Of a DNA stretch of 50,324 bases, positions 19,417 through 30,796 are shown one piece after another. Location: assembly GCA_036833315.1 (NCBI GenBank), contig DAITPY010000008.1:1-50324 (forward strand), written 5' to 3'. Origin of the DNA: Candidatus Dormiibacterota bacterium. GTDB taxonomy: Bacteria > Chloroflexota > Dormibacteria > Aeolococcales > Aeolococcaceae. Positions within the stretch are counted from its first letter, which is position 1. Each line of letters begins with the position of its first letter. The notes under the pieces are model-generated. The model ran no database searches. It had not been told where the DNA came from and saw only the letters and a program-made list of their open reading frames with translations. A program made the position numbers and the translations under genes.

Positions 19417-21582
19417 CTACCCCGTGAGTGCCGGAACTCGCGAAACGTTGACCAACGAGCCCTGCACGGTGGTCCCGTGGCCGGGCGACGAGGTGACCTG
19501 CAGCGTTCCGCCAAGCGCATCGAGGCGGTCTTCCATGTTGCTCAACCCCGCACCTCGCTTAACGTTCGCGGCGTCGAAGCCCTGACCATCGTCGCTGACC
19601 TCGAAGTCGACGATCCCGTCCGCCTCACGCACGCGGATCAGCACCTGTGAGGCATGCGCGTATTTCTGGATGTTCTGCAGCGCCTCGAGCACACAGAAGT
19701 ACACCGCAGCCTCAACGTCCTGCGGGTAGCGACCGACTGCGTCCGCCTCGACCGTCACCGGGACTGTCGTCTTGCGCGCCTGCGACTCGAGCGCCACTCG
19801 CAGCCCCTTGTCGGCGAGCAGTGGCGGATAGATGCCGCGGGCGAGATCACGCAGTGTCTCGAGCGCCTCGTCAGCGTCAGACTTCAATTCGTCGAGGGTC
19901 TGCCTGGCCCTCGCCGGGTCGCGGCGCACCAGCATCTCGGCAAGCCCGAGCTTCACCTTGAGCGCCACCAGGTGCTGCTGGGCGCCGTCGTGGAGGTTTC
20001 GCTCCAGGCGCCGGCGCTCCTGGTCCTGAGCCGTCACCAGTCGCTGCCGCGATGCGCGCAATTCCTCGAGGCGCGCCTGGAGGTCGCTGGTCAAGCCGAC
20101 GTTCCTGAGCACCAGACCCGCCTGCCCGGCCAGGTGAGTGAGCAGATTTTCCTCCACCGGCGTGAGCGCCTCGCCGTTGCGTTTGGTCACACCCAGCGCG
20201 CCGAGCAGCTCACCCTGATGACGCACCTCCACCATGCGGCTCGCTCCATCCACAGGAGGCAGCACCCCGTCGCTCGCCGGCACCGGCTGGGCGCGAACCG
20301 CATCGTCAGGCCACACTGCGGCCTCGCGCCAGATGGTGCCGCTGCGCAACCAGATGTCGGCGCGCTGCGCGCCGGTTCCGTCGGCAAGCACCCGCGCCAT
20401 ACGCGGCATGACGTCGTCCACCGCGTACGACTCCGCGACGCGCTCGGAGAACTGCGACAGCACCTCGTATGGCGTGGCGCGCTTCCCGTAGACGAGCCGG
20501 TTCGCCACCCGCTGCACGCGCTCGCGCACGGGTTGGAAACCGACCGCGACGATGGCCGTCGCGACGATCGAGAGTCCGAGGTTCGGCTTACCACCGCCGC
20601 CGATGAGCGCACCGATGCCCACGGCGATACCGACGTACACCGCGGTGATGAACACCGCAAGGGAGCCGTAGACGAGCGTGCGGCTGATAACGATGTCGAT
20701 GTCGTAGAGCCGGTATTTCAGGATCGCGACGCCTGCGGCGACCGGGAGAGCGATGCCGAAGCCGAGGACGATCGCGGCATCGAAGAGCCAGCCAGGCAGG
20801 AGTGTCCCGGAGAGGAGGGTGACGGGCAGCAGCAGCACCGCCGTGACCAGCACCGCGTAGGCAATCCACTTCAATTGCTGCCGTTCGTCACCCTGCGAGC
20901 GGCGCATTCGCAAAAATGGCGCCATCGCTGCGACGATGAGCACTACCACGCCGAGCATCCAGACGACGACGCCCCACGGACTCGTATTGATGTTCGGATT
21001 CACCACGTCGAAAGCCGCAACACCCAGCGGGTTGGGCGGCAGGGGATAGTTCGACCCGCTCGAGGCTCCCGATAGCGGCCCAGGTGCGAGCGCTGAGCCG
21101 ACGCTCAGCCAGACAGCCAGCGCAACCCCGATCACGGCGACCGGCCGCCATCGCCGCGATGGGAGGTGGCCATCGGGGAGCACGAGCAGCGTGATCGCGA
21201 CGATGCCCGAGGGAAACAGGAGTGGCGTCGACGAACTGGCCGCCCACAGCACCCACACCGAACCTGGGAGGTAACCCGGGTGCGTGAGCAGCGCGAACCT
21301 GACGTACTGGTCTCCGACCCCCTGCAGCCCCGAGAAGATCGCGGTGGCCAGGAAGAGCCAGCCGATCGGATTGTGCGGCCGCCGCGCCGCGATCAGCCCG
21401 CCAACCGCCGCGAATCCAAGCGGCAGGACGATGGCGATGGGATCCGCGGCGTCGATGTCCGGGAGATGGCTTCGATTCGCGACCGCCAAGCCGATTGTCG
21501 CCGCGGAGGTCGCCACCGACAATGCCGCCAGGCCGGCGGCGAGCACGGTCGTGCCGGCTCGCGGCGACTCGTCTTCCGGCAT
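19417..21582 (-). CDS. Multi-TM GAF sensor histidine kinase (HisKA_3/NarX-type)
   Basis: N-terminal TM bundle, GAF region, RRRLERNLHDGAQQ H-box, EALQNIQKYA, DDGQGF, GAGL, GHGT. Confidence 0.93.
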   Translation of the reverse strand: MPEDESPRAGTTVLAAGLAALSVATSAATIGLAVANRSHLPDIDAADPIAIVLPLGFAAVGGLIAARRPHNPIGWLFLATAIFSGLQGVGDQYVRFALLTHPGYLPGSVWVLWAASSSTPLLFPSGIVAITLLVLPDGHLPSRRWRPVAVIGVALAVWLSVGSALAPGPLSGASSGSNYPLPPNPLGVAAFDVVNPNINTSPWGVVVWMLGVVVLIVAAMAPFLRMRRSQGDERQQLKWIAYAVLVTAVLLLPVTLLSGTLLPGWLFDAAIVLGFGIALPVAAGVAILKYRLYDIDIVISRTLVYGSLAVFITAVYVGIAVGIGALIGGGGKPNLGLSIVATAIVAVGFQPVRERVQRVANRLVYGKRATPYEVLSQFSERVAESYAVDDVMPRMARVLADGTGAQRADIWLRSGTIWREAAVWPDDAVRAQPVPASDGVLPPVDGASRMVEVRHQGELLGALGVTKRNGEALTPVEENLLTHLAGQAGLVLRNVGLTSDLQARLEELRASRQRLVTAQDQERRRLERNLHDGAQQHLVALKVKLGLAEMLVRRDPARARQTLDELKSDADEALETLRDLARGIYPPLLADKGLRVALESQARKTTVPVTVEADAVGRYPQDVEAAVYFCVLEALQNIQKYAHASQVLIRVREADGIVDFEVSDDGQGFDAANVKRGAGLSNMEDRLDALGGTLQVTSSPGHGTTVQGSLVNVSRVPALTG

Positions 21583-21618
21583 GCGTCAACTCTAGGAACG
21601 ACAGACGGCGTTGCACAT

Positions 21619-21657
21619 GGCGCTAGCACCACCGTCGCGCAGTGGCTGACACCACCG
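21619..21657. promoter_or_regulatory. Candidate response-regulator operator: two imperfect 12-bp palindromes 23 bp apart
   Basis: GGCG-CTAG-CACC (21619) and GTGG-CTGA-CACC (21642), forming the direct repeat GCT(AG/GA)CACCACCG. A similar pair occurs at 22382/22405. Confidence 0.45.
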
Positions 21658-21687
21658 GAGGCCCACTGCCGCTGTCAGCCGGCCAGC

Positions 21688-22353
21688 CTAACCCTGCGCT
21701 GCGAGGTAGACGAGGGCAGCCTTGACCCGCCGGTGCACATCAGGCTCCTCGGAGAGATCGAGCTTGGAGAAGATCGCGTTGATGTGCTTCTCCACGGCTC
21801 GTTCGGTAAGGAAGAGAGCGGCGGCGATGCCCGAGTTGTTGCGGCCCATCGCCACCTGCTGGAGCACGTCGCGCTCGCGCGGCGTCAGCTGTGCGATCGG
21901 CGAGTCGCGCGCGGCGCTCCGAGCCGCGACGAGCACCTCAACCACACGCGGATCGATCACCGACCCGCCGCGAGCGACCTCGCGGACGGCCCCGACCAGC
22001 TGATCGATGTCCGAGACGCGCTCCTTGAGCAGGTAGGCGCGTCCGCTCGCGCCCTTCTCCAGCAACGCGAGCGCGTACTCCGGCTCGGCGTACTGGCTGA
22101 GGACGACGACACCGATGTCAGGACGTTCGGCGCGCAGGCGCTCGGCGGCACGCAGTCCCTCGTCGGTGCCTGTCGGTGGCATTCGGATGTCGGTGATCAC
22201 CACCGCAGGGTTGTGCTCCTCGATCGCGCGTTCGAGCTCGGGGAGGTCGGCACAGGTCGCCAGCAACTCGATCTCATCGGAGGTCTCGAGCAGCTGGCGG
22301 ATCCCCTCGCGGAGCAGGTAGTTGTCCTCGGCAAGGACCACGCGGAACGGCAC
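21688..22353 (-). CDS. NarL/LuxR-family response regulator
   Basis: VLAEDN, TDIRMPP, YLLK, LTPRERDVL...IFSKL; start GTG 22353 (TATTCT-N6). Confidence 0.95.
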   Translation of the reverse strand: MPFRVVLAEDNYLLREGIRQLLETSDEIELLATCADLPELERAIEEHNPAVVITDIRMPPTGTDEGLRAAERLRAERPDIGVVVLSQYAEPEYALALLEKGASGRAYLLKERVSDIDQLVGAVREVARGGSVIDPRVVEVLVAARSAARDSPIAQLTPRERDVLQQVAMGRNNSGIAAALFLTERAVEKHINAIFSKLDLSEEPDVHRRVKAALVYLAAQG

Positions 22354-22458
22354 GCGTTGAGAATAGGCGAGCGAACCGGCGGGTGCCTGCCCCACCGCCG
22401 ATGTGGGGCGAGCACACTTGTCGGCTCGGCGAGACCGGGTTACCGTGGAGCCGTTGCA

Positions 22459-22842
22459 ATGAGTGTTCGAGTGCTGATCGTGGACGATCAAGCCCCTTTC
22501 CGCGACGTCGCCAGGACCGTCGTCGAGCTGACCGACGGCTTCGAGGTGGTCGGGGAGGTCGAGACCGGCGAGGCGTCGGTCGCGTCCGCCCGTGAGCTTC
22601 GCCCCGACCTCGTGCTCATGGACGTGAACCTGCCCGGCATCAGCGGCCTCGAAGCAACCAAGGAGATCCTCGCCGAGGTCGCCGAAGCCAGGCCGGTTGT
22701 CGTGCTGGTGTTGTCGACGTACGAGGCCGACGAGTACGCGCCGCGCGCGGCCGAGGCCGGCGCCGCAGGGTTCATCTCCAAGTCCGATTTCAGCCCCGAC
22801 CGGCTCGCCGAGGCATGGGCCGCGGCGACCGCCACCGCGTAG
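22459..22842 (+). CDS. Stand-alone receiver-domain response regulator
   Basis: LIVDDQ, LMDVNLPGISG, LST, FISK; no output domain; SD GGAG. Confidence 0.92.
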   Translation: MSVRVLIVDDQAPFRDVARTVVELTDGFEVVGEVETGEASVASARELRPDLVLMDVNLPGISGLEATKEILAEVAEARPVVVLVLSTYEADEYAPRAAEAGAAGFISKSDFSPDRLAEAWAAATATA

Positions 22843-22851
22843 GCGACGACG

Positions 22852-24192
22852 TCAGACTGCTGTCACAGTTGCGCTGGCTCGCGTCGCCGCGCCGACCCGG
22901 TAGGCGCCGACCGGAGCCTGGCGCCCCTTGACCAGCGCGGGCTCGATCCGCTCCGCATCCGGCCGCTCGACCAATGCGTCGTAGGTCGGCTCGCTCAGCA
23001 CCGTCTGCCCGCCCTCGCCCCACTGCTGCAGACGCTGCGCAAGGTTGACCGCGTCACCGACGACGGAGTACTCGAGCCGCTCCTCGGAGCCGAGCAGTGC
23101 CGCGGCGACGTCACCTGTCGAGAGGCCGATACCGAGGTAAAAGGGCGGGAGTCCGCGCGCGGCCCAGCGTTCGTTCACCGCGTTCTGGGCGGCGTGCATC
23201 GCCAGCGCCGACGCGAGCGCGCGTTGCGCATGGTCGGGCTGGGGGAACGGCGCACCGAACACCGCCATCACCGCGTCACCGACGAACTGCATCACCGTCC
23301 CACCCTCGGCGAGCAGCGCGTGGTTCATCGCCGCGCGGTGCTCATTGAGCTGACCGGCGAGCACCGACGGATCCGCCGCCTCGGCGATCGTGGAGTACGC
23401 CCGGATGTCGGACATGAGCACGGTGACGGTCAGCCGTTCGGTCTTTCCCGGCTCCACGCCGTGTTCGCGCATCTGCTGGGCGATGCCGCCCGGCAACATG
23501 CGGCTCAGGCTCTCACCCTGTTCCTCGCGATCGATGATCACCTTGTGGAGGAGTCGCAGGCGCTCGAGCGCACCCTGCGTTCCCGCACTTGCCTGCTGCG
23601 CGAGCTTGAGAAAGAGCTGCTCGACGTCGTCGGCGACCGATGTCGGCGTGGAATGCAACGCCGCCGCTATGGCCTTGATCGGCTTCCCCTCGGCGACCAT
23701 CCGCAGCAGCCGCTCCTCGATCACGGTGAGCCCACCTGCATCACTGACCGGCTTGGTGAGCGCTTCCACGATGCGGGGGTCGAGCATCGAGCCGCCGGTG
23801 CTGACTTCGCGAACCGCCCGCGCCAACTGATCACCGTCGCCGACGCGGTCCTTCAGGAGATACGCGTATCCCGCCGCGCCCTCGCTGAGCAGGGCGATGG
23901 CGTACTCGGGCTCGTCGAACTGCGAGAGGATGACCACGCCGGTTCCCGGATGCAGCTTGCGCACGATTCGCGCGGCTCGAATTCCCTCGTCGGTGAAGTT
24001 GGGTGGCATGCGAATATCGGTGACCACCACCTGGGGAACGTGCTCGGCGGCGCCGGCGAGGAGCTCGTCAAAGTCGCCTGCAACGCCGACCACCTCGACG
24101 TCGCCGGAGATGGCGAGCAGAGCGCGAACGCCTTCGCGGACAATCAGGTTGTCGTCGGCAAGCACGACGCGGATCACCGGCTCAGTGGGCAC
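22852..24192 (-). CDS. Receiver - degenerate LuxR HTH - class III nucleotide cyclase fusion
   Basis: REC (LADDN, TDIRMPP); cyclase motifs LMSDIRAYST, MQFVGDAVM, YSVVGDAVNLAQRL. Confidence 0.92.
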   Translation of the reverse strand: MPTEPVIRVVLADDNLIVREGVRALLAISGDVEVVGVAGDFDELLAGAAEHVPQVVVTDIRMPPNFTDEGIRAARIVRKLHPGTGVVILSQFDEPEYAIALLSEGAAGYAYLLKDRVGDGDQLARAVREVSTGGSMLDPRIVEALTKPVSDAGGLTVIEERLLRMVAEGKPIKAIAAALHSTPTSVADDVEQLFLKLAQQASAGTQGALERLRLLHKVIIDREEQGESLSRMLPGGIAQQMREHGVEPGKTERLTVTVLMSDIRAYSTIAEAADPSVLAGQLNEHRAAMNHALLAEGGTVMQFVGDAVMAVFGAPFPQPDHAQRALASALAMHAAQNAVNERWAARGLPPFYLGIGLSTGDVAAALLGSEERLEYSVVGDAVNLAQRLQQWGEGGQTVLSEPTYDALVERPDAERIEPALVKGRQAPVGAYRVGAATRASATVTAV

Positions 24193-24338
24193 GCGCCTAC
24201 TCTAGTCAACGAGGCGGAGAACGAAATGAGGCTGCCACCACGATCCGCGGGGGTGATCCTCACTCTGACTTGTGGTCCGGGCACCCTCGACCCGCCCCCG
24301 CCCGGGAACGATCATCTCGGTCGCACGGAGGAAATGAC

Positions 24339-25340
24339 ATGCGCATCCAGTCGTCGGTGACATCGATCTCCTGGATCCCGTCGGAGGCGATCCAAGGGCT
24401 GATCAAAATGCCGTTCGAAATGGGCATGGCCCACTACGACGATCCCCCGCCCGACCACATCGACTCACTCGAAGCCCTTCGAGCGGCAGACCGCTTCCGC
24501 TTCGCCAATCACCTCAGCGCCTGGATCGAGGTGGATGGCGGACGCATCACCGGTGCCGGACAGGATGGTCATGGCCATATCGGCTCGACGACGTTCCGCC
24601 TCGGCAGCCGTGGGATGACCTTTGTCGGGGTTCCGTTGCCAGACCGGCAACCGGCGCCCGTGAGCGGCGACGGCTGGGTGCGCTTCACACAGACCGCCGG
24701 CGGGCGCACCGGCGCGCCCATGCCTCGCAAGGTGAACCGGCCGCCCTTCGTCCAGCTTGCAGCGCCGATCGCATGGACGACGCTGACGCTCACGATCTTC
24801 GCTGATGGTTCGTCGTCGCAGGACCTCGACGGGGCGAGTCAGTTTCCCCGCCACTGGATCTACGACGGCGAACAGAACCTGTGCCTGAAGTCGGGTCTGG
24901 TCGACTTCAAGCGCTGGTCTCAAAATGCGTTCGGCGCCAAAACTCCGTGGGGCGATGAGGATTCCCCCGCTCTGGTCACCGAGGTCGAGACCGCGCTGGA
25001 GCGCGACCTTTCCCTGCGGATCATGCGCGGAGGCGCCAAGCCGCGGATCGAGACCGTCAAGCAAGGTGTCGCACTCGTCGAACAGGGCGCAGAGGGCACT
25101 GACATGTACGTGCTCCTCGACGGCGTGCTCTCGGTCGAGGTCGACGGTGCGGCGGTTGCGCAGGTCGGTCCCGGCGCCGTGCTCGGCGAGCGTGCGCTCA
25201 TCGAGGGCGGCCGGCGAACAGCAACACTTCGTGCGCTGACCACCTGCAAGGTCGCCGCTGCCTCAGGCGCTGACCTGGCTCCGGACCTGCTCAGTGAGCT
25301 GGCTGCGGGGCATCGCCGCGAAGGGGATCGGGCCGTCTGA
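24339..25340 (+). CDS. Protein with an uncharacterised N-terminal domain and a C-terminal cNMP-binding domain
   Basis: EQGAEGTDMYVLLDGVLSV...GPGAVLGERALIEGGRRTATLRA; SD GGAGG before ATG 24339. Confidence 0.88.
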   Translation: MRIQSSVTSISWIPSEAIQGLIKMPFEMGMAHYDDPPPDHIDSLEALRAADRFRFANHLSAWIEVDGGRITGAGQDGHGHIGSTTFRLGSRGMTFVGVPLPDRQPAPVSGDGWVRFTQTAGGRTGAPMPRKVNRPPFVQLAAPIAWTTLTLTIFADGSSSQDLDGASQFPRHWIYDGEQNLCLKSGLVDFKRWSQNAFGAKTPWGDEDSPALVTEVETALERDLSLRIMRGGAKPRIETVKQGVALVEQGAEGTDMYVLLDGVLSVEVDGAAVAQVGPGAVLGERALIEGGRRTATLRALTTCKVAAASGADLAPDLLSELAAGHRREGDRAV

Positions 25341-26139
25341 TCGCGGCGATCACCCGATCCATGACGACCTCCGGCGAAAAGGTCGCCACCTCAACGCGGC
25401 GTCCGGCGAGCAGCCAGTCGAGCTCGTCGGGTTTGAGCAATGAGCTGAGATCTCGAGGGAGGCGGGCCGGTGCGCCCTCGAGGACCTGCTGCAACGGGCC
25501 GTCGACCTCCGAGGGTCGCAGGCCGGCGTCGTCCGCCGCGATTCCCGAGTCACGGAGGTCGAGCACCAGGGCACAACCTCGCGGCGACGCGTCGTGGAGC
25601 GCGATCGCCTTGCCGGACGTGATCGCCACCTCGCCGTCCGGCGCGGCGACGACGGTTGTTCCGCTGAGCTCGGCCCGGTCGAGATTGGCGGCAACCATGC
25701 TCGCGGTGTCTCGGGTGTCGCAGATGACCGTGGCGGTGTGCGCGGCAGCGTCCGGCTGAGCTGGAAGCGGGGCGCTCGGATCGATGAGCCCGGGCAGGTC
25801 GAGATCGCCGAAGCGACCGCGAAATTCGTCGAACGAGAGCGCGAGCAGACGTCCGGTGAGTGCGGGGCGGCGCAGACGCCCGAATACCCCGGCGAGCGCA
25901 AGGGCAGCGCCCAGCGAGACCAACAGCACGAACGCGACCTTGATGCCGATGAGGATGAGCCCGATGAGCACGAGCAGCACGCCGAAGCCGATCTCGCCGT
26001 TCGCCGCGGCGTTCGACGGAGGGATTTCCGCGCGGGCGCAGGTCGCGTAGTACAGCTGGCGTTGCGTATAGCGCCATCCGTCGGCTGCGAGCCGGGTGGC
26101 GGAGTCCTCCACGAGTGACTGAGTGACGGGCAGCGCCAT
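25291..26139 (-). CDS. Hypothetical membrane protein with Topo VI-A/Spo11-like motifs
   Basis: YTQRQLYY, TM hairpin, HDASPRG, RVEVATFSP; start ATG 26139. Confidence 0.6.
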   Translation of the reverse strand: MALPVTQSLVEDSATRLAADGWRYTQRQLYYATCARAEIPPSNAAANGEIGFGVLLVLIGLILIGIKVAFVLLVSLGAALALAGVFGRLRRPALTGRLLALSFDEFRGRFGDLDLPGLIDPSAPLPAQPDAAAHTATVICDTRDTASMVAANLDRAELSGTTVVAAPDGEVAITSGKAIALHDASPRGCALVLDLRDSGIAADDAGLRPSEVDGPLQQVLEGAPARLPRDLSSLLKPDELDWLLAGRRVEVATFSPEVVMDRVIAAIRRPDPLRGDAPQPAH

Positions 26140-26200
26140 CGCATGGAGTGTTGCATGTCGGCGAGTTCGTGCCCGGGAGACGCCGAGATATGCTGCGGCC

Positions 26201-27910
26201 ATGATCACCGGTCGGGAGGCGTCGCCGTCCGAAGCGGTGGAGGGAGCCGAACCGGATTTCGCGCAAGCGCTGCTCGAGTGGGAAGCTCGCCGCCTCGACC
26301 CGGCCCGCCGGAGCGGCGAACGAAAGGAGCAGTTCGAGACCGGCAGCGGCATTCCTGTCGGTCCCCTCTACACTTCCGCCGACCTGAGGGGCCACGACGC
26401 GCTCCGCGACGAAGGCTTCCCCGGCGAACCACCCTTCACCCGCGGCATCCAGCCGACGATGTACCGCGGCCGGCTCTGGAGCATCCGTCAGTACGCGGGC
26501 TTCGGCACCGCGGCCGACGCCAACGCGCGCTTCCGCTATCTGCTCGCCCAGGGGCAGCCCGGTCTCTCGGTCGCGTTCGATCTGCCCACCCAGATGGGCC
26601 TCGACAGCGACGATCCTCGCAGCGCCGGCGAGGTCGGTCAGGTCGGCGTCGCCATCGACTCCGTGCGCGACATGGAGGACCTCTTCGAAGGGATCCCGCT
26701 GAGCGCGGTGAGCACCTCGATGACCATCAACGCCCCTGCTCCCGTGCTCGTTGCCATGTACGTGGTCGCGGGGGAACGTCAGGGCCTCGACGCCGCATCG
26801 ATCATGGGGACCGTCCAGAACGATGTCCTCAAGGAGTACATCGCGCGAGGCACGTTCATCTATCCGCCGCAGCCATCGCTGCGGCTCGCCGCGGATCTGA
26901 TCGCGTGGTGCACGGTCAACGCACCGAAGTTCAACCCGATCTCGCTGTCGGGGTATCACATTCGCGAAGCCGGGAGCACCGCGGCGCAGGAGATGGCCTT
27001 CGCGATCGCCAACGCGTGCGCGTACGTGCAGGCGGCGGTCGACCACGGTGTCGATGTCGACGACTTCGCCCCCAAGCTCTCGTGGATCTTCAACACCCAC
27101 ATCGACTTCTTCGAGGAGATCGCCAAGTATCGTGCGCTGCGTCGGATGTGGGCGAGGATCATGGCGGATCGCTTCGCCGCGCGCGATCCGCGCTCGCTGA
27201 TGCTGCGCACGCACTCGCAGACCGGCGGCTCGACGCTCACCGCGCAGCAGCCCGAGAACAACATCGTCCGTGCAGCTGTCGAGGCGCTCGCGGCGGTCCT
27301 CGGTGGGGTGCAGTCGCTCGCACTCTCCTGCTACGACGAGGCGCTCTCCATACCGACGGAGAAAGCGCAACGCATCGCCGTGCGCACCCAGCAGATCCTC
27401 GCCGAGGAGACCGGCGTCACCAATACAGTCGACCCGATGGCGGGTTCGTACCACGTCGAGTGGCTCACCGATGAGCTCGAGCGTCGAGCCCAGGCATTGC
27501 TCGACGAGGTCGACGCGCGCGGCGGGGCAGTGGCATGCATCGAGTCCGGCTGGATGCAGGAGCTCATCCAGGACGAGGCGTATCGCACCGAGCAGGCGAT
27601 CGCCGCCGGCGACAAGGTGATCGTCGGTGTGAACCGCCACACCGAGACCGAGGAGGTGGGCGCGCCGCTCCTCTTCAGGCCTGATCTTCGGGTGATCGCC
27701 GAGCAGGAGCAGCGGCTCGCCGCACACCGGGCGCACCGCGATGCCGCATCCGTCGATGCCGCGCTGGGCGCCGTACGGAACGCCGCGACGTCGGACCAGT
27801 CGCTGATGCCGCGCATCGTCGACGCGGTGCGCGCCGAGGCGACGCTCGGCGAGATCTGCGGCGCGTTGCGGACCGTGTTCGGCGAGTATCACCCGCCGGC
27901 CACGATCTGA
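26201..27910 (+). CDS. Methylmalonyl-CoA mutase, substrate-binding (N-terminal) subunit of a split enzyme
   Basis: RQYAGFG (Tyr), QNDVLKEYIARGT (Arg), SGYHIREAG; no B12-binding DxHxxG domain; start ATG 26201 (TATGCT-N6). Confidence 0.92.
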   Translation: MITGREASPSEAVEGAEPDFAQALLEWEARRLDPARRSGERKEQFETGSGIPVGPLYTSADLRGHDALRDEGFPGEPPFTRGIQPTMYRGRLWSIRQYAGFGTAADANARFRYLLAQGQPGLSVAFDLPTQMGLDSDDPRSAGEVGQVGVAIDSVRDMEDLFEGIPLSAVSTSMTINAPAPVLVAMYVVAGERQGLDAASIMGTVQNDVLKEYIARGTFIYPPQPSLRLAADLIAWCTVNAPKFNPISLSGYHIREAGSTAAQEMAFAIANACAYVQAAVDHGVDVDDFAPKLSWIFNTHIDFFEEIAKYRALRRMWARIMADRFAARDPRSLMLRTHSQTGGSTLTAQQPENNIVRAAVEALAAVLGGVQSLALSCYDEALSIPTEKAQRIAVRTQQILAEETGVTNTVDPMAGSYHVEWLTDELERRAQALLDEVDARGGAVACIESGWMQELIQDEAYRTEQAIAAGDKVIVGVNRHTETEEVGAPLLFRPDLRVIAEQEQRLAAHRAHRDAASVDAALGAVRNAATSDQSLMPRIVDAVRAEATLGEICGALRTVFGEYHPPATI

Positions 27911-28477: not shown

Positions 28478-30796
28478 ATGCATACCGAGAGCGCCGCTCG
28501 GCGCTGGTTGCCGCTATTCGCGACGGTCGTTCTGCTCGGCATCACCGGGTGGCAGCTGGTCGATTCTCGCTTGCCGATCAGCCTGATAGTCGTCGAGATC
28601 GAGGTCGTCGGCGTCGCCGCGGTGATGCTCGAGATCACGATCCGGTTGCGCCATGTGGCACGGGTCGGCCCGTCGATTGCGGCCCTGATCCAGGGACTCA
28701 CCAGTGTCGCGCTGTGCACGCTGATCCTCGGGCTCTCTGCCCCGAGCCTCACGCACCCGATTCCGCTCATCGTCCTCGGCTTCGTCGCGGTCCTGCTGAC
28801 GGTGGATCCGTCGGCGCGCCCGGCTGCGCTCTGGACCATCCTGCTGGCGTCCTGCGCGGGGGTCGCCGGGGTCTGGTGGCGGGGCGGGTGGTACAGCCCG
28901 GACGGGATCAAGGAATTGATCCAGATCGATGCGCTCGTGATCGGGGTGGTGGTGCTCGCATATTCGAACTGGTCGCTCACCGACCGTCACTATCAGGCGC
29001 AGACGAGACGGCTTCGGGCCGTTGCCGACGTCGCCCGCCGGCTCGGGCTCACCACCGATTCCAGGGGCGTCGCCGCCGCCGTGCTCGGCGGCTGCCACGA
29101 GGCGTATCCAGACGCGACCTGGGGACGGATCATGCTGTTCGACACCGATTCGGGGGCGCTCGCGACCCTGCCGCTGATCCTCGGACCGGGTGGCGTGACC
29201 GCTGCGGCGGGTCCGCTCGTGACCATGGCGGCAGGGGAGGGTGTCATCGGCGGGGTGTACTCGACCGGCGAGGCATGCCTGCTGCGTACCCCACGAGAGA
29301 TCAAACAGGCGCACGCGAATCTTCCAGCGTCAGGGCTCGACGCGCTGGCGACCCTCGGTGGTGGGCGCCGCTCGCGAAGCTTCGTCGCGGCGCCGCTTCG
29401 CGCCGCCGGGGGGCGGGTGGTCGGCGTGCTCGTGCTCGTGTCGCACGCCCGCCGCGGAGCGTGGGACGTCGACGACCTGACAGTCGTCCAGGCCATCGCC
29501 GACGAGGCGGCGGTCGCGGTTGCGCGCGCCGGGCTCTTCGAGGAGAAGGCGATTCATGCCACCACCGATCCGCTCACCAAGGTCGGCAACCGCCGCGCCT
29601 TCGAGGAACGGCTCGGCGAGATGAGCGGGGCGACGGCCGTCGTCGCCATCGATGTCGACCATTTGAAGCCGATCAATGACGAATTCGGTCATGAGGCGGG
29701 GGACACGTTGCTGGTCGAGGTGGCGCGGACGCTGCGAGCGCAGCTGCGCGGCGGCGACCAGCTGCTTCGCATCGGCGGTGACGAGTTCGTGTCAATCATG
29801 GACTTAACAACCGAGGAGGAGGCGGTTGCGATCGCCGAGCGGATGCGGCTGTCGCTGCATGGGGTCGCATTGCCGCATGGGCGGGCACGCATCAGCGCGG
29901 GTGTCGCCGCAGGCGGCGGCGGGGTGCACGCGTTGTGGCTCGCCGCGGACGAGGCGTTGTCGAGGGCGAAGCATGGGGGTCGCGATCGCGTGGTGGTCGC
30001 GGGAGATCGCTCCCTGCCAAGCCTGATCCACGGGGGTGGTGACGCCAGCGCGATGCTCGACGCAATCCTCAGCAAGCGGCGGGTGATCCGCGCGACGTTC
30101 CAGCCGATCCTGCGTCTCAGCGATCACAAGGTCCTCGGCCACGAGGCGCTGGCGCGGGTGCCGGGCCTGCGAGATCCGCTCGACGGCGTGGAGGACGTCT
30201 TTGCCCTCGCACATCGGCGCGGGGTCACCAAGGAGGTCGACTGGATCTGCCGGCGGATCGCCATCGACGCGGCATCGGCGCTGCCCCCGTCCGATCCCCT
30301 ATTCCTCAATGTCTCAGCGGCGATGCTGCTGGATCCCCTGCATCCGGTGGACCACATGCTCCTGCTCGCGCGCTGGGCACAGCGGGATCCGGAGACGATG
30401 GTGCTGGAGATCACCGAGCGCGAGTCGATCGCCGACAAGCAGCGGCTGCGCTTCGTCCTGGCGAGCTATCGCGAGCACGGCTTCCAGTTCGCGCTCGACG
30501 ACATCGGCGAAGGACACTCCACGCTCGAGTTGCTTGCCGCCGCGGTCCCCGAGTTCGTCAAGGTTGCCAAGAGCATCACCCAGGACTGCGGCGAGCGCGG
30601 GCCCCGTGCGGTCATCGAGGCGACCGTCGCCTACGCTCGGAGCTCCGGCTCGTGCGTCATCGCCGAGGGCATCGAGGACGAGGCGACGGCAGATCAGCTG
30701 CAAGCGCTCGGCGTCACCGCCGGCCAAGGGTACTGGCTCGGCCGTCCCCAGGAGCCGCGGCTCGACGTCGAGGCGCGCGGCGAGGCGACAGCCTGA
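28478..30796 (+). CDS. Membrane GAF-GGDEF-EAL diguanylate cyclase/phosphodiesterase
   Basis: About 6 TM segments, GAF, DPLTKVGNRR, RIGGDEF, HEALAR, EITE, DDIGEGHS, EGIE, QGY. Confidence 0.94.
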   Translation: MHTESAARRWLPLFATVVLLGITGWQLVDSRLPISLIVVEIEVVGVAAVMLEITIRLRHVARVGPSIAALIQGLTSVALCTLILGLSAPSLTHPIPLIVLGFVAVLLTVDPSARPAALWTILLASCAGVAGVWWRGGWYSPDGIKELIQIDALVIGVVVLAYSNWSLTDRHYQAQTRRLRAVADVARRLGLTTDSRGVAAAVLGGCHEAYPDATWGRIMLFDTDSGALATLPLILGPGGVTAAAGPLVTMAAGEGVIGGVYSTGEACLLRTPREIKQAHANLPASGLDALATLGGGRRSRSFVAAPLRAAGGRVVGVLVLVSHARRGAWDVDDLTVVQAIADEAAVAVARAGLFEEKAIHATTDPLTKVGNRRAFEERLGEMSGATAVVAIDVDHLKPINDEFGHEAGDTLLVEVARTLRAQLRGGDQLLRIGGDEFVSIMDLTTEEEAVAIAERMRLSLHGVALPHGRARISAGVAAGGGGVHALWLAADEALSRAKHGGRDRVVVAGDRSLPSLIHGGGDASAMLDAILSKRRVIRATFQPILRLSDHKVLGHEALARVPGLRDPLDGVEDVFALAHRRGVTKEVDWICRRIAIDAASALPPSDPLFLNVSAAMLLDPLHPVDHMLLLARWAQRDPETMVLEITERESIADKQRLRFVLASYREHGFQFALDDIGEGHSTLELLAAAVPEFVKVAKSITQDCGERGPRAVIEATVAYARSSGSCVIAEGIEDEATADQLQALGVTAGQGYWLGRPQEPRLDVEARGEATA

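Follow-up and report, generated by a model that had tools for sequence, protein, structure and literature searches.

Which nucleotide does a class III cyclase make when the lysine that selects adenine is replaced by glutamine, and which protein receives the product? The question is raised by a locus of Candidatus Dormiibacterota bacterium (GenBank assembly GCA_036833315.1, contig DAITPY010000008.1, forward strand), which we analyzed as a stretch of 50,324 nucleotides, here called the window. One gene of this locus encodes a receiver (REC) domain, a degenerate LuxR-type helix-turn-helix (HTH) and a nucleotide cyclase in a single polypeptide. The divergent neighbor, referred to below as the partner, encodes a cyclic-nucleotide-binding (cNMP-binding) domain behind an N-terminal domain that matches no Pfam family. 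Bacterial class III cyclases with non-canonical base-selecting residues are common in genomes, yet a product or a receptor has been assigned to very few of them. A preliminary description of this DNA had proposed that the two proteins form a dedicated cyclase-effector pair, possibly using a nucleotide other than cyclic AMP (cAMP), that is switched on by a two-component kinase. Based on comparative evidence, both the dedicated cyclase-receptor module and its two-component gating are well supported. We give even chances to the fuller reading, in which this chromosomal module would signal through a cyclic purine of altered selectivity with the partner as its receptor.

Base pocket of the cyclase and its linkage to the partner

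The catalytic domain matched Pfam Guanylate_cyc (PF00211) over residues 255-425 with 78.8 bits, against a cut-off of 21.9, and its best relatives among solved structures were all of class IIIb (E 1e-31 to 2e-21). The metal-binding residues D262 (in SDIR) and D306 (in MQFVGD) and the transition-state residues N383 and R387 (in VNLAQRL) aligned with those of 2w01, 3r5g and 1wc0 and were invariant in the orthologs. By these alignments the catalytic machinery is shown to be complete, as the preliminary description had read it. The first base-selecting position is Gln302 (codon CAG, 23287-23289) and the second is Ser376 (in YSVVGD, 23065-23067); translation and structure alignments agree with the earlier assignment of both. 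In the HMMER alignment, Q302 lies under the Glu of the guanylyl cyclase Cya2 (2w01, 'idEfmgd') and under the Lys of 6fht, which is Cya2 engineered from Glu to Lys as an adenylyl cyclase, of CyaB (3r5g) and of CyaC (1wc0). S376 lies under the Gly of Cya2 and the Thr of CyaB and CyaC. Thus, Cya2 (Synechocystis), CyaB (Pseudomonas aeruginosa) and CyaC (Spirulina) have the same catalytic residues as the cyclase of the window and, like it, a second base residue other than Asp. They differ from it in the first base residue, Glu in Cya2 and Lys in CyaB and CyaC, and in their regulatory domains.

The cyclase orthologs were 61-96% identical. Gln302 was found in 56 of 56 scorable orthologs from the partner-first survey described below and in every full-length ortholog from the cyclase-first survey, so it is not a chance occurrence or a sequencing oddity. 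The second base position was Ser in Dormibacterota and mostly Thr elsewhere. Neither canonical class therefore fits. The Ser or Thr is compatible with an adenylyl cyclase (Lys, then Asp or Thr), for which the Gln302 of every ortholog is wrong; similarly, the Ser is acceptable in a guanylyl cyclase (Glu, then Cys, Gly, Ser or Ala), for which the first residue is Gln and not Glu.

A sister clade of REC/degenerate-HTH/cyclase proteins on metagenome contigs (L122-L128), 45-47% identical, has the canonical Lys-Thr pair. The fixed differences between the Gln clade and the Lys clade include Met260/Phe, Met301/Asp, Gln302/Lys, Val304/Gln and Ala365/Gly, where Met260 precedes the first metal Asp by two residues. 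Base choice in the cytidylate cyclase EaPycC is determined by F100, R142 and Q144, which lie beside the metal ligands D102 and D146 (PMC11224242). By their spacing from the metal Asp residues, these correspond to positions 260, 302 and 304 here; Arg142, which precedes the second metal Asp by four residues, is the equivalent of Gln302. The pocket thus underwent several changes together, and the comparison with the nearest Lys-Thr relatives shows that it was remodelled.

Linkage was surveyed from both genes. The partner-first survey took one genome per species and the best 80 of 199 confirmed relatives. The cyclase-first survey was run on metagenome contigs using the 17-sequence ortholog alignment as the query, and a locus was assessable if it held a full-length cyclase with at least 1.3 kb of upstream sequence. 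The partner-first loci came from Dormibacterota, Acidimicrobiales, Solirubrobacterales, Gaiellaceae, a cultured Nonomuraea and one Mycobacteriales genome, and the partner was 56-82% identical across them. An ortholog of the REC-HTH-cyclase was present at 60 of the 80 loci; in 56 of these 60 it was divergent from and adjacent to the partner, with a spacer of 123-162 bp in most. In the other direction, the partner was present at 25 of the 27 assessable Gln-type loci. Synteny thus holds in both search directions and across two phyla, Dormibacterota and Actinomycetota, and the proposal of a dedicated pair is upheld. The whole module is also carried by the cultured Nonomuraea sp. JJY05 (L067), which could be used for its genetics.

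Two Gln-type loci with ample upstream flank, L085 and L110, had no partner. At L085, a gene of the metallo-beta-lactamase (MBL) fold directly abuts the cyclase, as if the partner had been deleted.

The Lys-type relatives are a natural control. The partner was present at none of the three assessable Lys-type loci of the same architecture, and at none of nine when all Lys-type hits were counted. The co-occurrence of Gln and partner gave Fisher p values of 0.002 (against 0/3) and 6e-7 (against 0/9), which are descriptive and uncorrected for shared ancestry. The signaling context is the same at L124, where two HisKA_3 kinase genes and a divergent NarL regulator gene flank the Lys-type gene, and another gene takes the place of the partner. 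As judged from these loci, Gln marks a clade and was acquired along with the partner. This coincidence of the Lys-to-Gln switch with the gain of a receptor gene, together with the Lys-type clade as a control, lends itself to a clean experiment with three to four proteins.

In Actinomycetota, an MBL-fold gene often follows the partner. Of the 80 partner-first loci, 45 had it 3' of the partner, on the same strand and within a few bases (e.g., L072:6999-7847); all 45 belonged to the 61 Actinomycetota-like loci. Its product carries an HxHxDH motif and matches Lactamase_B_2. The gene was also present at loci without the REC-cyclase, and it was found neither in the window nor in the Dormibacterota-like loci L001-L019. 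The best NCBIfam match, well under the cut-off of its model, was 'cyclic nucleotide-degrading phosphodiesterase' (E 5e-10 to 1e-7); the product is possibly a cNMP phosphodiesterase. Searched against the PDB, the single sequence had no match and a profile retrieved RNase Z-type enzymes. Were the protein a phosphodiesterase, the genes for making, sensing and removing the messenger would lie together in those genomes.

Candidate messenger and the ordinary cAMP pathway

Based on the remodelled base pocket, a cyclic purine of relaxed or shifted selectivity is expected. Specifically, the product would be a 3',5'-cyclic purine nucleotide, either cAMP with substantial cyclic GMP (cGMP) or mainly cGMP, and the amide of Gln302 would read either purine, as proposed for Rv0386 of Mycobacterium tuberculosis. 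Gln is isosteric with the Glu of guanylyl cyclases and can serve as a hydrogen-bond donor or acceptor. A changed pocket is further suggested by the strict conservation of Gln and by its covariation with further positions of the pocket and with the presence of a private receptor. We consider altered purine selectivity of the cyclase an evenly balanced proposition. More tentative is the stronger claim that the Gln-type enzymes do not make plain cAMP but cGMP, both cAMP and cGMP in a deliberate mixture, or yet another cNMP as a private signal, that the partner is its specific receptor, and that the beta domain of the partner is a new class of output. A pyrimidine product is less likely, since the residue sets by which the pocket is narrowed in Pycsar enzymes, Arg/Tyr/Asp or Phe/Arg/Gln (PMC11224242; 10.64898/2026.08.12.744502), are not present here.

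Several observations weigh against a purine messenger of altered selectivity with a dedicated receptor. The Ser or Thr at the second base position is a standard residue of class IIIb adenylyl cyclases, and the guanylyl-cyclase signature (Glu, Cys/Gly, Arg) is not present. The Gln/partner association may trace to a single ancestral event, in which case the Fisher values overstate independence. No adjacent cyclase was found at 20 of the 80 partner loci, mostly of Solirubrobacterales and Gaiellaceae, so the partner can use a messenger source encoded elsewhere. Within the window, an opposite-strand gene lies between the cyclase and the regulator-kinase operon, so their co-regulation is presumptive. 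Finally, the phosphodiesterase match of the MBL protein reached 31-39 bits against a cut-off of 400, and RNase Z models and structures scored almost as well.

The alternative that survives best is an ordinary cAMP pathway, in which Gln302 is a tolerated replacement of Lys, selectivity is normal and the partner is one more cAMP receptor. We regard it as possible, if rather unlikely. It accommodates the Ser/Thr residue, as usually found in class IIIb adenylyl cyclases (CyaB and CyaC, for example), the missing Glu/Cys/Arg signature, and a partner cassette (G-E...R-T) that is compatible with cAMP. It would leave unaccounted for a Gln that is invariant over approximately 60% sequence divergence and two phyla when the nearest clade keeps Lys, the joint change of several further pocket residues, and the coincidence of the Gln change with the gain of a private receptor.

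Rv0386 bears on both readings. The substrate pair of this enzyme is Gln-Asn; it reportedly confers dual activity (Castro et al. 2005), and the enzyme provides the idea of an 'amide switch' by which ATP and GTP are both accommodated. No dedicated cNMP receptor is known beside Rv0386. Rv0386 has the order cyclase-ATPase-TPR-HTH and no receiver, which sets it apart from the REC-HTH-cyclase order of the window, and its second residue is Asn, versus Ser or Thr here. Rv0386 is reported to be mainly an adenylyl cyclase with a guanylyl side activity (10.1101/2024.03.06.583649), which favors the cAMP pathway. Rv0386 and the cyclase of the window are alike in having Gln for the adenine-selecting Lys and a LuxR-type HTH in the same polypeptide, and in coming from a lineage of the high-GC Gram-positive type.

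Could the adjacency be historical only, with the partner responding to the general cNMP pool? This is improbable. The 20 loci without an adjacent REC-cyclase are consistent with it, as are other cyclases that lie 3-5 kb from the partner, beyond unrelated genes, in Solirubrobacterales. Against it, Dormibacterota and several actinobacterial orders share the divergent layout with its spacing, the reverse search gave 25 of 27, and the Lys-type relatives never occur with the partner in either count (0/3 assessable, 0/9 in all).

The Solirubrobacterales cyclases (loci L033, L039, L053, L056, L060, L061 and L069) are of a different kind, with Ala or Ser at the Lys position. We rejected these Ala/Ser-Thr enzymes as linkage evidence since desaturase, reductase and MerR genes intervene, and their proximity to the partner is probably incidental.

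If the messenger is other than cAMP and the MBL protein is a phosphodiesterase, the genes would constitute a complete, previously unrecognized circuit that is widespread in soil Dormibacterota and Actinomycetota.

The partner protein and the comparison with defence systems

The partner starts at ATG 24339, as fixed by its orthologs and a GGAGGA ribosome-binding site; this replaces the TTG at 24270 that had been assumed. Its family comprises 335 representative clusters at E ≤ 1e-30, where clusters are drawn at the 50% identity level, and the full-length members listed are approximately 330 residues long. In source annotations they are called 'hypothetical protein' or 'cyclic nucleotide-binding protein'. 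An AlphaFold2 model based on a 31-sequence alignment had a mean pLDDT of 82 and predicted an all-beta region (residues 1-209), a long helix (210-231) and a standard cNMP-binding domain.

The cNMP-binding domain is plain. Pfam cNMP_binding (PF00027) matched with 51.7 bits against a cut-off of 27.5, over residues 240-314 as numbered from 24336 (1 lower if numbered from 24339). The phosphate-binding cassette GERALIEGGRRTAT, at 25185-25226, is complete with its Gly-Glu and Arg-Thr, so the intact cassette noted in the preliminary description stands. Profile matches included the cNMP-binding domains of PKG, PKA, MloK1, HCN and PycTIR, and Foldseek gave a probability of 1.00 to many solved cNMP-binding domains. 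The full-length model retrieved cNMP-binding domains only from the PDB, and a profile search of the PDB found no sequence match to the partner outside this domain.

The C-terminus was examined for a reading of the ligand. In CRP, XC_0249 and PycTIR, the base-reading residue of the C-helix (S128, E146 and N143, respectively) lies approximately 46 residues past the cassette Arg (PMC11224242). In the partner, 40 residues follow the cassette Arg, R293, with a conserved C-terminal HRRE at +32 to +35. The protein thus ends approximately 6 residues short of the base-reading position, and the identity of the ligand is not readable from its sequence.

The region before the cNMP-binding domain had been described as an unrecognized domain of approximately 230 residues. 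It is indeed unrecognized by Pfam; its size is better given as approximately 210 residues plus a linker helix of approximately 20. No Pfam family matched the N-terminal domain even at E ≤ 10 among 25 members, and no viral fold matched it in BFVD. Its conserved motifs are SWIPSE, HYDxPPP, FRFAN, QTxGGRTGxPxPR, WTTL, FPRHWxYD and TPWG, and its conserved polar residues, which include H32, D34, R54, Q118, R123, R171 and H172, would suit an enzyme or a ligand site. Foldseek against the PDB gave one significant neighbor, the Bacillus anthracis structural-genomics protein BAS0735 (3c5p; E 3e-4, TM-score ~0.5). BAS0735 differs in lacking a cNMP domain, and with 13% identity, a root-mean-square deviation (rmsd) of 9 Å and no known function it gives no functional lead; a literature search on BAS0735/3C5P returned nothing relevant. 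Support for the proposed module would give a first function to the partner family, whose N-terminal fold has no characterized relative.

Rare relatives of the partner have an additional domain: a second one for cNMP binding in P0123, an Mpo1-like one at the C-terminus in P0126, and an MBL one, likewise C-terminal, in P0235. These extra domains are either real fusions or gene-calling artefacts.

A dedicated cGMP pathway offers one comparison. The Xanthomonas genes XC_0250 and XC_0249, for a cyclase and a cNMP-binding receptor, are adjacent. The structure 5h5o from this system matched the cNMP domain of the partner with an rmsd of 2.3 Å. XC_0250/XC_0249 is a dedicated cGMP pathway (5h5o; cited in PMC11224242), and XC_0249 differs from the partner in having a GGDEF output and in reading guanine through Glu146 on its C-helix, where the partner ends earlier, with HRRE.

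The other comparison is with anti-phage systems of the Pycsar or Pucsar type, in which the cyclase makes a cyclic mononucleotide on infection and cell death or growth arrest follows through an effector that binds cNMP. The resemblance is real as far as it goes: in both cases a class III-like cyclase and a cNMP-domain protein are encoded by two adjacent genes, and in the defence systems non-cAMP messengers keep the signal private (PMC11224242; 10.64898/2026.08.12.744502). PADLOC matched its PycC model to the cyclase domain (4e-20) and its Pycsar TIR-effector models to the cNMP-binding domain (1e-10), and the cGMP-using Pucsar systems show that such pairs can use purines (10.64898/2026.08.12.744502). 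The PADLOC matches were limited, however, to the generic cyclase domain and the cNMP part of the partner (residues 235-314), and of the effector models only the cNMP-binding portion was matched. In Pycsar and Pucsar, a defence operon encodes a cyclase that has no sensor and an effector of the TIR or transmembrane kind, whereas the genes here are divergent, the cyclase has a receiver in the same polypeptide and a kinase and a regulator encoded nearby, and the partner has a soluble beta domain and no TIR, transmembrane or other known killing domain. The N-terminal domain had no viral or defence match in PADLOC, Pfam, the PDB or BFVD. Moreover, the kinase, a methylmalonyl-CoA mutase gene and a conserved open reading frame (ORF) are syntenic across Dormibacterota, which is a chromosomal arrangement and not an island-like one. 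A defence function is thus highly improbable, and the earlier analogy with Pycsar holds only at the level of a cyclase plus a cNMP-binding protein.

Two-component input and gene setting

The regulatory half of the cyclase protein is a NarL-type regulator. Response_reg (PF00072) matched residues 9-109 with 53.5 bits against a cut-off of 30.2, and the receiver quintet D13/D14/D59/S90/K114 was invariant in the 17-sequence ortholog alignment; the codon of the phospho-acceptor D59 is 24016-24018. Full-length NarL-family profiles covered the protein to about residue 199. Residues 7-200 were 51% identical to the adjacent NarL-type regulator, over receiver and HTH alike, and the cyclase protein thus consists of a second copy of the entire regulator joined to a cyclase domain.

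The HTH segment retained its hydrophobic pattern, and Pfam GerE (PF00196) had no match on the cyclase at E ≤ 0.01. Its recognition helix is acidic, SVADDVEQLF versus AVEKHINAIF in the adjacent regulator, with Asp/Glu where the regulator has Lys/His/Asn. The acidic helix was conserved across the cyclase orthologs, and the HTH of the Lys-type sister clade was degenerate too. Based on the undetected GerE domain and the conserved acidic helix, we read the HTH remnant as a structural relay and not as a DNA reader. A conserved helix after the HTH ends in EEQGESLSRMLPGG, and E224, Q225, G226, S230, R231, L233 and P234 of this connector were invariant in the 17-sequence alignment. The motif EEQGESLSRMLPGGIAQQM at its end resembles, in our estimation, the cyclase-transducer element that precedes many class III catalytic domains. 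Alignment to solved mycobacterial cyclases began at residues ~223-227.

A more distant REC-HTH-cyclase (L139:47-1453; 32% identity) has a canonical LuxR HTH (LTEREREVL...TVEAHVKQIF). It suggests that, at its origin, this architecture joined a cyclase to a regulator that did bind DNA.

A transcription factor whose cyclase domain is only a non-catalytic dimerization or sensor module, as proposed for cyclase-ATPase-LuxR proteins, is very hard to uphold: an HTH-like segment is present and conserved, proteins of the Rv0386 type join a cyclase to a LuxR HTH, and the activity of Rv0386 is reportedly low, but all six catalytic positions except the base-selecting Lys are invariant, GerE went undetected in a segment whose recognition helix is acidic, and a dedicated cNMP receptor is encoded next door.

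The earlier suggestion of a two-component switch is supported by the invariant quintet, the identity to the adjacent regulator and the presence of a HisKA_3 kinase in the cluster. In the proposed mechanism, this kinase would sense a signal and phosphorylate both the NarL-type regulator and D59 of the cyclase; we infer phosphotransfer from the adjacent kinase from the 51% regulator identity and the conserved linkage. By what is known of these families, phosphorylation would drive dimerization of the NarL-type receiver, and dimerization would be relayed through the HTH remnant, incompetent in DNA binding, and the helical connector. A head-to-tail cyclase homodimer with two active sites would then assemble. 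The remodelled pocket (Lys to Gln at 302, Phe to Met at 260, Asp to Met at 301, Gly to Ala at 365) would shape the product, which the cNMP-binding domain of the partner would read, controlling the N-terminal beta domain as an output that is either an enzyme or a protein-interaction module. In Actinomycetota, the MBL hydrolase, co-transcribed with the partner, would probably degrade the messenger.

Receiver-regulated cyclases are known in cyanobacterial CyaC and Dictyostelium ACR (PMC3009899), and REC-GGDEF enzymes have a comparable input (PMC8041772). As in the cyclase of the window, a receiver controls a dimeric nucleotide cyclase and phosphorylation leads to a second messenger. The present system differs from them in that its input is a whole NarL-type regulator duplicated from a neighboring gene, its base pocket departs from the canonical one, and the neighboring gene encodes a private receptor. 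Its characterization would describe a signaling pathway in Dormibacterota, a soil phylum of high abundance with hardly any cultured members.

Table 1. Genes, domains and spacer of the cyclase-partner locus. Positions refer to the window; residue numbers refer to the respective protein.
Feature	Positions	Strand	Basis
Histidine kinase, 721 aa	19417..21582	-	Pfam HisKA_3 and HATPase_c; NCBIfam MctS/UhpB/LiaS-like matches
NarL-type response regulator, REC and GerE HTH	21688..22353	-	Pfam Response_reg and GerE
Stand-alone CheY-like receiver, 127 aa	22459..22842	+	Third-codon-position GC content 0.88; tblastn conservation
REC/degenerate LuxR-type HTH/class III (IIIb-like) nucleotide cyclase, 446 aa	22852..24192	-	ORF, Pfam
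Cyclase: catalytic domain, residues 250-433	22894..23445	-	Alignments to 2w01, 6fht, 3r5g, 1wc0
Cyclase: helical connector ending in EEQGESLSRMLPGGIAQQM	23455..23586	-	Conservation in ortholog alignment
Cyclase: degenerate LuxR/GerE-type HTH, residues 154-200	23593..23733	-	Aligns with the GerE domain of the regulator
Cyclase: receiver domain, residues 7-122	23827..24174	-	Invariant residues; likeness to adjacent regulator
Divergent intergenic region, 146 bp	24193..24338		Alignment of 17 loci
Partner, 333 aa: all-beta N-terminal domain, linker helix and cNMP-binding domain	24339..25340	+	ORF, orthologs
Partner: N-terminal domain, residues 1-209, ~15 beta strands	24339..24965	+	Domain model, pLDDT 87.4, pTM 0.85
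Partner: cNMP-binding domain	25035..25313	+	Pfam cNMP_binding, Foldseek

The DNA of the window is high in GC (64-72%), and its nearest relatives were metagenome-assembled genomes labelled Candidatus Dormibacteraeota. The stretch of the module (19417-25340) holds five genes, for the kinase, the regulator, a stand-alone REC, the cyclase and the partner (Table 1). The features given in the preliminary description were all confirmed in the sequence; the stand-alone REC and the degenerate HTH had been overlooked. The kinase begins with a long hydrophobic region, read from its hydrophobicity as a putative multi-pass membrane segment, followed by a weak GAF-like region and the HisKA_3 and HATPase_c domains; orthologs were present in most related loci. 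The regulator likely starts at GTG 22353. The stand-alone REC gene sits within a longer spurious ORF, between the cyclase gene and the regulator-kinase operon; it converges on the cyclase gene, and 9 bases lie between the two stop codons. Conserved copies adjoined the regulator in Dormibacterota and Acidimicrobiales loci in tblastn searches, and the protein may act as a phosphate sink or as a third output of this kinase.

In the divergent spacer (24193-24338), no Rfam family and no sigma-70 consensus were found. Alignment of the 17 loci revealed three blocks kept among the Dormibacterota loci, ACTCTAGTCA, GAAATGGGGCTGCCACCACG and TGTGGTCCGGGCACCCTCGAC. The blocks contain an ACCACG...CGTGGT inverted pair approximately 45 bp apart, and they may be operator or promoter elements.

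Two further genes lie downstream of the partner. A conserved ORF without a Pfam family (25291-26352, minus strand), whose central segment is hydrophobic, runs toward the partner gene, shares approximately 50 bp with the 3' end of that gene and is syntenic in Dormibacterota loci at 60-74% identity. A 772-aa GAF-GGDEF-EAL protein, an enzyme of cyclic di-GMP signaling, is encoded at 28478-30796 on the plus strand, 3 kb from the module.

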